NCBI GenBank assembly: GCA_951406725.2
Contig: OX597831.1
Coordinates: 44,888,001 to 44,952,000 of the forward strand
Direction of reading: 5' to 3'
DNA: 64,000 nt
DNA from: Octopus vulgaris
Lineage: Eukaryota
The position numbers were made by a program, and so were the translations under genes. Shown here one piece after another: positions 35,565 to 44,420 of the stretch; the first letter of the stretch is position 1, and each line of letters starts with the position of its first letter. A model generated the notes under the pieces. The model ran no database searches, had not been told where the DNA came from, and was given only the letters and a program-made list of their open reading frames with translations.

Positions 35565-37560
35565 ATTCTTTAGTAGCCTATAACTCACAGACATAGGTAC
35601 ACACGCCGACACACACACATGCACACACACACAAACACATATACGCACACTGGCGTACGCAAACGCCTTTCCATACAGTAAGAGAAATCAAGAAATTAAA
35701 AAATAAAATACTCGATATCAAAAACATAATGAATTTATTTTATTCAATGCTTCTTTACAAATCGGTCATGTTTGAACTTTTGTATCATCGGAAAAGACTG
35801 ATTCACTCACACACACACCGATTATTGTCATCAAAATTAGTAGGTTCGAAGCTTTTCTTTAGCTAATCTTATTAGTCTCAAACTGTTCACAATAAGCAGC
35901 TTTCACTGTATGTCTGTATAAGTATATATGTATATATATATGTGTGTATATATATATATATATATATATATATATATATATATATATATATATATATATA
36001 CATATATATACATATATATATATATATATATATATATATATATATATATATATATATATATATATATGTACGTACACAGTGGCAGACTGGCCAGGTTGCC
36101 AGCCTGCCCTATGGCAAGTGGGCCCTTTAGACATTAGAGTTCATATACGGGGGCCCATGTTAGTATCTAAGGAGCTCACGAAAAAAATATAAACGTTAGT
36201 TTAAAAGAAAATATGTGAAGTTTTAGAGAAAGAATAAAAATTTAAAAACGCAAATAAAACAGTTAAGCAAAGCAGTTGGCCAAAGAATTCCATAGGGAAT
36301 TAGTAGAAATCAAAATATATGATGCTGACAGCTAGTCATTGGTGATAAAGAGTAACTAAATTAATATAAATATTATGCATATTAATGCAAATATGCATAC
36401 ACACATAATACATATATATATATATATATATATATATATATATATATATATATGTGTGTGTATTATTATATATTATATATTATGTATGTATATATATATA
36501 TATATATATATATATATATATATGTGTGTATGTATGTATATATATATATATGTATATATATATATGTATATATATATGTATATATATATATATAGATATG
36601 TATGTATATATATATATATAAAGTTAATCCAAACAAGAAAACACAGAAAAAAAGAAGAAAAAAAAGGAGAAAAAAAGAGAAAAAAACACAGCAACGCAGG
36701 ACGTGGAACAATTAAAGTATTATTGACGCTCAGGAAAGAAGGGAAGGAGGGTTTAACGTTTCGAGCGGAGCTCTTCGTCGGTAACAAGGAGAAGGAAAGA
36801 TCCCAAGGAGGGAAAACAGAGGAGAAAATATATGAGCTGGTGGTGCTCAAAAGATCACATGTTGAAAGAACAGAAGTTGAAGGTAGTAGAAACATGGTTT
36901 TATAAGACAAGAGAGTTCCAAAAAAGGAATGCGTGTGTGTGTGTGTGTGTGCAAGATGACAAGTGTGTTTGTGCGTGTGTGTGTGTGTGTGTGTGTGTAT
37001 TTTTGGTGAATAAAGGCAATGACAAAGCCAGCTGTCATAATGACTACTAGCTGTTTGTATCAGGCCAGGTAAAAGCCGGGTCAAAAAAACAAAGGGCTAT
37101 ATGTATCATGTGTGTGTGTTGTTTGTAGTGTGTGTGTGTGTGTGCATGTGTGTGTTCGTGTGTGTATGCGTAGAGTGTGGGTGAGTGGTGAGTAACTGTT
37201 TAACCTAGTGCGTGTGTGCTTGTACGTGCGTGTGTGTGTGTAGGGATGTATGTGTGGGTTCATTTGTGTGAGAGTGTATGTATGTACGTGTATGTGTGTG
37301 CGTGTATGTGTGCGTTTGTATGTGTTTGTGTGTATGTGTGCAATCGCGGATAGGTGTATATTGTGTATGTATATCTGTCGGTGTGTATGTGAGTTTGTGT
37401 GTGTTTGTACGTGTGTATGTGTGTGTGAGTGTATAGTATATATATATGTAAATGTGTGTGTGTGTGTGTGCGTGTGTGTGTACGTGCGTGCGAGTGAATG
37501 TATGTATATATGTGTGCGTGTGTGTACAATGTAGGGGCTTATATGTGTGTTTACATGTGT
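35565..37560. repeat. Copy 1 of ~2-kb direct repeat (non-element DNA plus Penelope pLTR)
   Basis: Colinear with 42459-44420. Few substitutions outside the microsatellites. Confidence 0.92.
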
Positions 37561-42459: not shown

Positions 42460-44420
42460 TTCTTCAGTAGCCTATAACTCACAGACATAGGTGCACACGC
42501 CGACACACACACACACACACACACACACACACACACACACACACACACACACACACACACACACACACACACACACACACACACACACACACACACACAC
42601 TGGCGTACGCAAACGCCTTTCCATACATTAAGAGAAATCTAGAAATTAAAAAATAAAATACTCGATATCAAAAACATGATGAATTTATTTTATTCAATGC
42701 TTCTTTACAAATCGGTCATGTTTGAACTTTTGTATCATCGGAAAAGACTGATTCACTCACACACACACCGATTATTGTCATCAAAATTAGTAGGTTCGAA
42801 GCTCTTCTTTAGCTAATCCTATTAGTCTCAAACTGTTCACAATAAGCAGCGTTCACTGTATGTCTGTATAAGTATATATGTATATATATATGTGTATGTA
42901 TATATATATATATATATATATATATATATATATATATATATATATATATATATATATACATATATATATATATATATATATATATATTTATATATACATA
43001 TACATAATATATATATATATATATATATATATATATATATATATATATATATATATATATATATATGTACGTACACAGTGGCAGACTGGCCAGGTTGCCA
43101 GCCTGCCCTATGGCAAGTGGGCCCTTTAGACATTAGAGTTTATATACGGGGGCCCATGTTAGTATCTAAGGAGCTCACGAAAAAAATATAAACGTTAGTT
43201 TAAAAGAAAATATGTGAAGTTTTTGAGAAAGAATAAAAATTTAAAAAACGCAAATAAAACAGTTAAGCAAAGCAGTTGGCCAAAGAATTCCATAGGGAAT
43301 TAGTAGAAATCAAAATATATGATGCTGACAGCTAGTCATTGGTGATAAAGAGTAACTAAATTAATATAAATATTATGCATATTAATGCAAATATGCATAC
43401 ACACGCATTTTTATATTATATATATATATATATATATATATATATATATGTGTGTGTGTATGTATGTATATATATATATATATATATATATATATATGTG
43501 TGTATGTATGTATATATATATATACGTATATATATATATATATATATATATAATATATATATATATATATATATATATATATGTATATATATCTATATAT
43601 ATATAAGGTTAATCCAAACAAGAAAACACAGAAAAAAAGAAGAAAAAAAGGAGAAAAAAAGAGAAAAAAACACAGCAACGCAGGACGTTGAACAATTAAA
43701 GTATTACTGACGCTCAGGAAAGAAGGGAAGGAGGGTTAAACGCTTCGAGCGGAGCTCTTCGTCGGAAACAAGGAGAAGGAAAGATTCCAAGGAGGGAAAA
43801 CAGAGGAGAAGATATATGAGCTGGTGGTGCTCAAAAGATCACATGTTGAAAGAACAGATGTTGAAGGTAGTAGAAACATGGTTTTATAAGACAAGAGAGT
43901 TCCAAAAAAGGAATGCGTGTGTGTGTGTGTGTGTGTGTGTGTGTGCAAGATTACAAGTGTGTTTGTGCGTGCGTGTGTGTGTGTATTTTGGGTGAATAAA
44001 GGCAATGACAAAGCCAGCTGTCATAATGACTACTAGCTGTTTGTATCAGGCCAGGTAAAAGCCGGGTCAAAAAAACAAAGGGCTATATGTATCATGTGTG
44101 TGTGTTGTTTGTAGTGTGTGTGTGTGTGTGTGTGCATGTGTGTGTTCGTGCGTGTATGCGTAGAGTGTGGGTGTGTGGCGAGTAACTGTTTAACCTAGTG
44201 CGTGTGTGCTTGTAAGTGCGTGTGTGTGTGTAGGGATGTATGTGTGGGTTCATTTGTGTGAGAGTGTATGTATGTACGTGTATTGTGTGCGTGTATGTGT
44301 GCGTTTGTATGTATTTGTGTGTGTGTGTATGTGCGTGCGAGTGAATGTATGTATATATGTGTGCGTGTGTGTACAATGTAGGGGCTTATATGTGTGTTTA
44401 TATGTGTGTGTGTATGTGTG
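42459..44420. repeat. Copy 2 of ~2-kb direct repeat
   Basis: Matches 35565-37560, with an ~150-bp deletion in the CA-rich part. Confidence 0.92.

Follow-up and report, generated by a model that had tools for sequence, protein, structure and literature searches.

Among known systems, the element studied here most closely resembles the EN+ Penelope-like elements (PLEs) of the Neptune clade. [quoted passage not shown] The last steps of a PLE insertion (second-strand cut, 5′ joining, and tandem formation) are left open by both PMC11167929 and PMC2377424. [quoted passage not shown] In Octopus vulgaris, Penelope-like families are among the recently active elements (336 insertions, 31 families; PMC13282606). 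The octopus locus described in this study is like the Neptune-clade PLEs in its ORF domains and its (TA)n target bias; it also has a hammerhead-like motif in the pLTR and a layout that resembles a partial tandem. Unlike them, it has 1.1 kb of flank between the upstream pLTR and the ORF unit, and this flank is repeated past the element. No PLE with such a flank between pLTR and ORF, repeated after the element, was found in the literature searched.

Large target-site duplications (TSDs) of L1 are known from cultured cells. When an avian R2 is impaired in second-strand nicking, its 5′ ends are joined downstream and duplications of ~1,000 bp arise, and the authors speculated that transcription supplies the distant break (PMC13486585). 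The 126-bp TSD of rotifer R9 is cited in the same paper as an exceptionally long natural case. In the mainly open-access literature searched, no PLE was reported to have a kilobase TSD; supplementary inventories of elements could contain such cases.

Layout of the locus

The window analyzed here is a stretch of 64,000 nucleotides (64 kb) of O. vulgaris DNA. Read on the minus strand, to which all features of the locus belong, the order is a (TA)n tract, a partial pLTR (pLTR′), a first flank copy (X1), a 17-nt stub, a near-full Neptune-like element, its pLTR, and a second flank copy (X2). The compound (TA)n tract to the left of pLTR′ spans 44421..44535, and its last 48 nt (44469-44422) recur just past pLTR′. 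The pLTR′ itself (43600..44420, ~820 bp), bordered by (TA)n at either end, is a 5′-truncated 3′ end of the element. The second copy of the interrupted-microsatellite word lies at 43552..43595, making the word a candidate TSD of ~45 nt for pLTR′ alone. X1 (42458..43605, 1148 bp) is made up of a TA tract, a 337-bp block with the CAGTGGCAGACT motif at its end, another TA tract, a 281-bp block, a GT tract, and a 53-bp block. The stub (42443..42459) is identical to the element's own 3′ end and is followed by a 5′ untranslated region (42163..42442), with no ATG before 42162. The single ORF (42162 down to 39323 or 39305) encodes an RT, a CX4CXXC linker, and a GIY-YIG domain. A CA-rich 3′ UTR and the downstream pLTR, with a terminal TATATA, extend over 36615..39304. 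X2 (35564..36620, 1057 bp) begins with a (TA)n tract and is followed by a unique right flank from 35563.

The direct repeat of pLTR′ plus X, claimed in a preliminary description of this DNA, was borne out by self-BLAST and alignment; the self-BLAST was rerun with masking, as the unmasked version was swamped by microsatellites. The X1-element-X2 structure is real in the assembly. In the three non-microsatellite blocks, to which the comparison is confined, X1 and X2 differ in 10 of 671 columns (1.5%), while pLTR′ and the downstream pLTR differ in 21 of 802 columns with the CA-rich parts included (2.6%). These two divergences are not significantly different (Fisher p = 0.15). A segment of 147 bp (37337-37483) of the downstream pLTR is missing from pLTR′. 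The microsatellites of X1 and X2 are strongly different, and their TA tracts are unlike at several places.

No further copy of X was found in the 64-kb window. The preliminary description saw a hAT-like end in X. The motif CAGTGGCAGACTGGC occurs only at 36077 and 43076 when up to 3 mismatches are allowed, and no inverted partner end was found at fewer than 4 mismatches; thus, the hAT likeness is taken here as a resemblance only. No repeat or inverted-repeat pair that spans the border of X with the right flank or of the left flank with X, and that would tie X to either flank, was found at the locus. The motif TATATAAT(A/T)nATGCGT was found on the minus strand at two places only, at 44517 within the left TA tract and at 43422 where the first X1 tract ends, and it is absent from X2. 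Short elements with inverted-repeat-like ends were noticed by eye at 44748-45052 and 35189-35412, in the left and right flanks, entirely outside X.

The Penelope-like element

A frameshift-aware alignment of the ORF to a 904-aa relative, which contains both domains, covers 889 residues and shows 53% identity. The ORF has four frameshifts of one base each, near 41177, 41043, 40924, and 39902-39911, all of them one-base losses and mostly in or beside base runs. No in-frame stop was found in the alignment to the protein P0001; the alignment to P0003 placed five shifts, and that to P0005 placed one stop next to the first shift. When residues 20-330 of the largest ORF piece served as the query and only longer proteins were considered, 92 of 2503 candidates matched, the best being 64% identical. 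The ORF pieces match the RVT_1 and GIY-YIG profiles, both under the Pfam cut-off. The RT motif YIDD is present in the ORF, and the linker CSRSRCNTC at 39706 fits the CX2-5CXXC pattern found between RT and EN in both Neptune and Nematis. The CCHH of the GIY-YIG domain is seen in LIYCIKCNRCRMLYIG at 39592 (two Cys between GIY and YIG) and in His motifs at 39508 and 39469.

A single ORF in which an RT precedes a GIY-YIG endonuclease is the arrangement of EN+ PLEs. By the clade definitions of PMC8557442, which include the CX2-5CXXC linker, the element is an EN+ PLE of the Neptune or Nematis type and adds a member to a known clade. A bias toward insertion into microsatellites, which is a Neptune trait, was also seen: (TA)n ends both 3′ ends of the family and those of two related copies. 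I use the label Neptune-like provisionally, on the strength of this bias; the matched proteins are unnamed or hypothetical.

A hand-written pattern detected a minimal hammerhead-like motif in both pLTRs (36785-36750 and 43769-43733), and the motif of pLTR′ has two changes at otherwise shared core positions. The pLTR motif can be aligned to its counterparts in two PLE copies of the window that are more distant. Among these four copies, which are too few for significance, 29 of 32 cells agree with the pairing and one pair is compensatory; this is not above shuffled controls (162/500). Minimal hammerhead ribozymes of the PLE type have been described as dimers. When five hammerhead regions were folded as monomers, the z-scores ranged from -0.26 to +0.99 and gave no support. 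An Rfam search gave no match at the gathering level and 102 sub-threshold matches, with no hammerhead among them, mostly microRNA models on microsatellites. Since each copy has private changes in the hammerhead-like motif, both copies have aged in place. An attempt to date the ORF by the loss of conserved residues depends on the threshold, giving 0/83 for 97%-conserved columns, 4/119 for 94%, and 7/156 and 15/182 for the further settings. The number of stops expected in the ORF is less than one at either age.

Other features of the window

Several other PLE copies and relics were found in the 64-kb window. A related 5′-truncated PLE lies at 10124-11481 (+), with the thumb, the linker, and GIY-YIG, 44% identity to P0001, one stop, and one frameshift; it has (TA)n on both sides, the same hammerhead-like motif, and a duplicated 36-nt stretch near its end. 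A solo 3′ end of the same family as this copy lies at 7278-8036 (-) with two TA tracts around it. A decayed element at 45500-47934 (+) reads as a different PLE with (TA)n at its end; a GIY-YIG-like stretch near 46960-47040 and a hammerhead-like motif near 47860 were both recognized by eye. Part of the 3′ UTR of this element has an 85% inverted copy at 44565-44666. Two ORF relics have no Pfam match: one at 23826-24467 (-), whose PLE origin is suggested by eye only, and one at 50482-51135 (+), which has a 41% match over 63 residues to the 45.5-47.9 kb element.

A single-ORF gene for a phosphatidylinositol phospholipase C X-domain protein lies at 51224-52156 (-). It matches an O. vulgaris protein at 99% identity over 37% of the query and an O. 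bimaculoides protein at 92% over 69%, which places the host in Octopus. Three O. vulgaris paralogs lie on one 84-Mb record, and the next matches are from fish, amphibians, hemichordates, and bacteria. A repeat of ~330 bp, which may be Helitron-like to judge by its end motifs, has four copies at 437-771, 8780-8999, 9296-9627, and 9696-10009 with 84-93% identity, three of them clustered. A mariner-type transposon at 57910-59194 has a Transposase_1 match and 40-bp inverted ends at 95%, and a 295-bp inverted copy of part of it (97%) lies nearby at 59571-59860. Non-LTR reverse transcriptase remnants (RVT_1) lie at 56251-57648 (+) and 33081-34031 (+), and 5693-6327 matches parts of the former. A tandem array with a period of ~232-234 bp, at least 7.3 copies, and 97% matches occupies 62284-64000 and runs past the window end.

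Junctions of the element

All five PLE 3′ ends inspected run directly into (TA)n (36615, 43600, 11480, 7278, and 47934). Three of the four 5′ ends inspected also adjoin (TA)n, namely those of pLTR′, of the 10124 copy, and of the copy whose limit, placed by eye, lies near 8036; the exception is the full element. The junction between X2 and the right flank has no TA tract, the nearest being 92 nt off, and no poly(A). Thus, neither poly(A) nor the target of the family, one of which would mark the end of carried DNA in a 3′ transduction, is present at 35564, and X contains a single AATAAA 181 nt before its end. Because the 3′ ends meet (TA)n in five of five cases and the X2/right-flank junction is without TA tract or poly(A), the priming site is, as judged from the sequence, the junction between pLTR and X2. 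If so, X2 is most likely the native continuation into the right flank. As in a TSD, the same sequence lies directly on either side of the insert, starting from the priming site, and both X1 and X2 open with a TA tract.

At its 5′ side, the element was described in the preliminary description as starting with the last ~16 nt of its own pLTR. The identity was confirmed, as 42443-42459 equals 36615-36631 exactly, and the length was corrected to 17 nt. In the upstream copy of this motif (43600-43616), one position is mismatched. Positions 42458-42459 are common to the stub and the end of X, which makes a 2-nt microhomology at the 5′ junction. Only the stub is directly attached to the ORF unit; the truncated upstream 3′ end lies beyond X1. 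Unit-length Penelope copies with short direct flanking repeats have been described, and the transcript begins in the upstream pLTR (PMC2377424). The stub requires no special mechanism, since it is a 5′-truncated remnant of the upstream pLTR like the short terminal repeats of those unit-length copies. The hammerhead-like motif lies ~140 nt before the unit end, so that the cDNA would have stopped slightly short of either plausible RNA 5′ end. Back-splicing was considered as the source of a circle and rejected, for the stub is preceded by TG or TT and not by AG.

The repeated word around pLTR′, first spotted by eye, is 44-48 nt long and has the form TAG(AT)nAC(AT)mT; one copy is directly left of pLTR′ and the other begins 10 nt past its end. 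The short form TAG(AT)2-6AC occurs only twice in 64 kb when both strands are searched, once on each side of pLTR′. The repeat looks like a TSD of pLTR′ alone. In a control with a length tolerance of 15%, which was set first, the pair was missed (a run of 37 vs 31 nt) and two of 960 other ordered tract pairs matched. After loosening to 20%, four of 960 ordered tract pairs share a three-interruption word, two of the four being the pLTR′ pair on the two strands, and at 30% five of 960 matched. The word is absent from the start of X2. X2 may have lost it, because the TA tracts of X1 and X2 differ elsewhere too, that is, such tracts remodel quickly.

Origin of the duplicated segment

How did X come to lie on both sides of the element? 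The explanation that I favor, at a probability of about one half, is a ~1.1-kb TSD of the near-full Neptune-like PLE together with a separate insertion of the truncated pLTR′ in the same microsatellite. The starting site would have been left flank-(TA)n-X-right flank. A nick made by a Neptune-like PLE in one strand of the (TA)n would have served to prime reverse transcription, and the PLE would have copied its RNA from the pLTR via the ORF up to 17 nt inside the upstream pLTR. With no second-strand cut close to the first nick, a break ~1.1 kb downstream would have received the cDNA end by way of the 2-nt microhomology, and X would have been duplicated by fill-in as a giant TSD. The pLTR′ would stem from a second insertion, 5′-truncated, of the same subfamily; it would have entered the same microsatellite earlier, later, or during the same episode and would have made a ~45-nt duplication of its own. 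Given the promoter reported in PMC2377424, which drives transcription downstream, the distant break could have come from transcription through X driven by the pLTR′ promoter.

The order X-element-X, the 3′ end of the element in (TA)n, and the 2-nt microhomology at its 5′ end make up the geometry of a TSD. The 147-bp gap and the 2.6% divergence between the pLTRs, against 1.5% for X, argue for a separate insertion of pLTR′. While the anatomy, both junctions, the preference for (TA)n, and the coding domains are shown, I infer that X is native to the site, that the second nick was missing, and that pLTR′ was inserted separately. On the other hand, this explanation has to assume two rare events in a single tract, the kilobase TSD and another insertion from the same subfamily, and its precedent, R2, is not a PLE but an engineered non-LTR element acting in human rDNA. 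The flanking-word test was passed only after loosening, the divergence comparison gives p = 0.15, and the ORF decay depends on the threshold. The preliminary description had offered two mechanisms. The junctions agree with the recopying of adjacent target DNA, which amounts to a kilobase TSD, while 3′ transduction with a template jump or a circle accords poorly with the X2/right-flank junction when set against the five PLE 3′ ends in (TA)n. Its statement that the duplication is PLE-driven either way was too strong, for host repair acting on an ordinary partial tandem yields the same product, and a haplotype join also has some probability.

Such repair is a possible but clearly less probable explanation. 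An ordinary partial tandem, pLTR′-ORF-pLTR-X, would have received a templated insertion at its tandem junction: a break at the junction, possibly made by the element's own nuclease at TATATA, would have let the pLTR′ end invade the downstream pLTR of the same molecule, the sister, or the homolog, whereupon the 1.1-kb flank was copied and rejoined by microhomology. Read-through RNA from the 3′ pLTR acting in cis would give the same product. If X1 and one copy of the 17-nt motif are removed, a textbook partial tandem remains, a form found in ~30% of D. virilis copies (PMC2377424), and in C. elegans helq-1 mutants aborted SDSA with end-joining leaves tandem duplications that show microhomology and have a median size of ~1 kb (PMC8654963). 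X1 has homology at its left edge and microhomology at its right, and a pLTR divergence at or above that of X fits as well. However, the word flanking pLTR′ should then recur at the start of X2, where it is missing, the break must lie within 17 nt of the unit boundary, and the 3′ end of pLTR′ bears no gene-conversion tract, as nine of the 21 differences fall in its last 260 bp. It is this absence of the word from X2, qualified by the tuned control and by a possible later loss, that sets the probability of the giant TSD against that of the repaired tandem. A haplotype join or assembly artefact, in which pLTR′ plus X1 and stub-ORF-pLTR-X2 are two alleles set in tandem, is improbable. The 1.5% between X1 and X2 would lie within the range of allelic differences for an outbred octopus, the microsatellites are strongly different, and the four one-base losses in the ORF could be read errors; PLE structures are also known to trouble assemblies (PMC8557442). 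Nevertheless, the window contains no N, and the junction is non-homologous with its 2-nt microhomology, lies 17 nt from the PLE unit boundary, and resembles a biological 5′ junction.

Distant 3′ transduction appears slightly less probable still. In this scenario, a read-through RNA of the element plus X was primed from the X end, and a second RNA or a circle then led to recopying of X and part of the pLTR. One event would cover the common endpoint of both X copies, with pLTR′ plus X as a truncated second unit. PLEs can carry host DNA, as seen in the A. vaga Pen1 spacers of 0.9-1.5 kb and the NRPS gene between pLTRs (PMC3846280), circular templates have been proposed (PMC4209133), and the one AATAAA in X could be cited in its favor. 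However, the priming junction would be the X2/right-flank border described above, PLE reverse transcription starts in vitro at an internal, element-defined site (PMC11167929), a ribozyme-made circle would close at the hammerhead and not at X, and the repeat around pLTR′ alone would be left unexplained. The position of X between a pLTR and the ORF might also suggest that X is a part of the family, a 5′ UTR or spacer present in most copies, but this is very improbable. X also follows the downstream pLTR and opens with the target microsatellite, its blocks have a GC content of 33-35% like the flanks (37%) and not like the ORF (57%), the true unit boundary, marked by the 17-nt stub, comes after X, and the other PLE ends in the window have no X behind them.

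Significance and comparison with known systems

If the giant TSD is true, a natural 1.1-kb TSD would be the footprint of an insertion without a coordinated second nick, ~9 times as long as the 126 bp of R9, and kilobase TSDs would offer a countable signature for a genome-wide test. At this single locus only microsatellites and repeat fragments were duplicated, and an effect on the host is not evident. The likely local effect is that the upstream pLTR, the promoter source in Penelope, lies 1.1 kb from the ORF. A bolder idea, to which I give a low probability, is that Neptune-like PLEs often leave the second strand uncut and thus make kilobase TSDs, and that re-insertion into the same microsatellite puts host DNA between two pLTR sequences in direct orientation, under the pLTR promoter. 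If true, this would be a general route for the duplication or capture of host DNA by PLEs, it could account for the A. vaga spacers, and octopus genomes would repeatedly gain local segmental duplications from PLEs.

In comparison with known systems, the duplication at the locus is an unusual variant, for which a different class of retroelements offers a precedent in mechanism. The Pen1_Av spacers and the Pen3a NRPS capture of A. vaga are similar in that ~1 kb of host DNA lies inside a pLTR-bounded structure (PMC3846280). They differ in that the spacer lies between the ORF and the 3′ pLTR, or the gene lies between pLTRs with a short TSD, and in that the captured DNA is not a copy of the adjacent flank (PMC3846280). 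The duplications ascribed to aborted SDSA and polymerase-theta end-joining share the ~1 kb size and the microhomology junction, whereas they are plain head-to-tail duplications in repair mutants with no retroelement between the copies (PMC8654963). The nicking-impaired avian R2 is like the proposed octopus event in that the 5′ end is joined downstream of the first nick and ~1,000 bp are duplicated, the end-joining taking place with or without microhomology (PMC13486585). In contrast, the avian R2 is an engineered non-LTR protein acting on human rDNA in cultured cells (PMC13486585), while the octopus locus is a natural PLE locus in an assembled genome.
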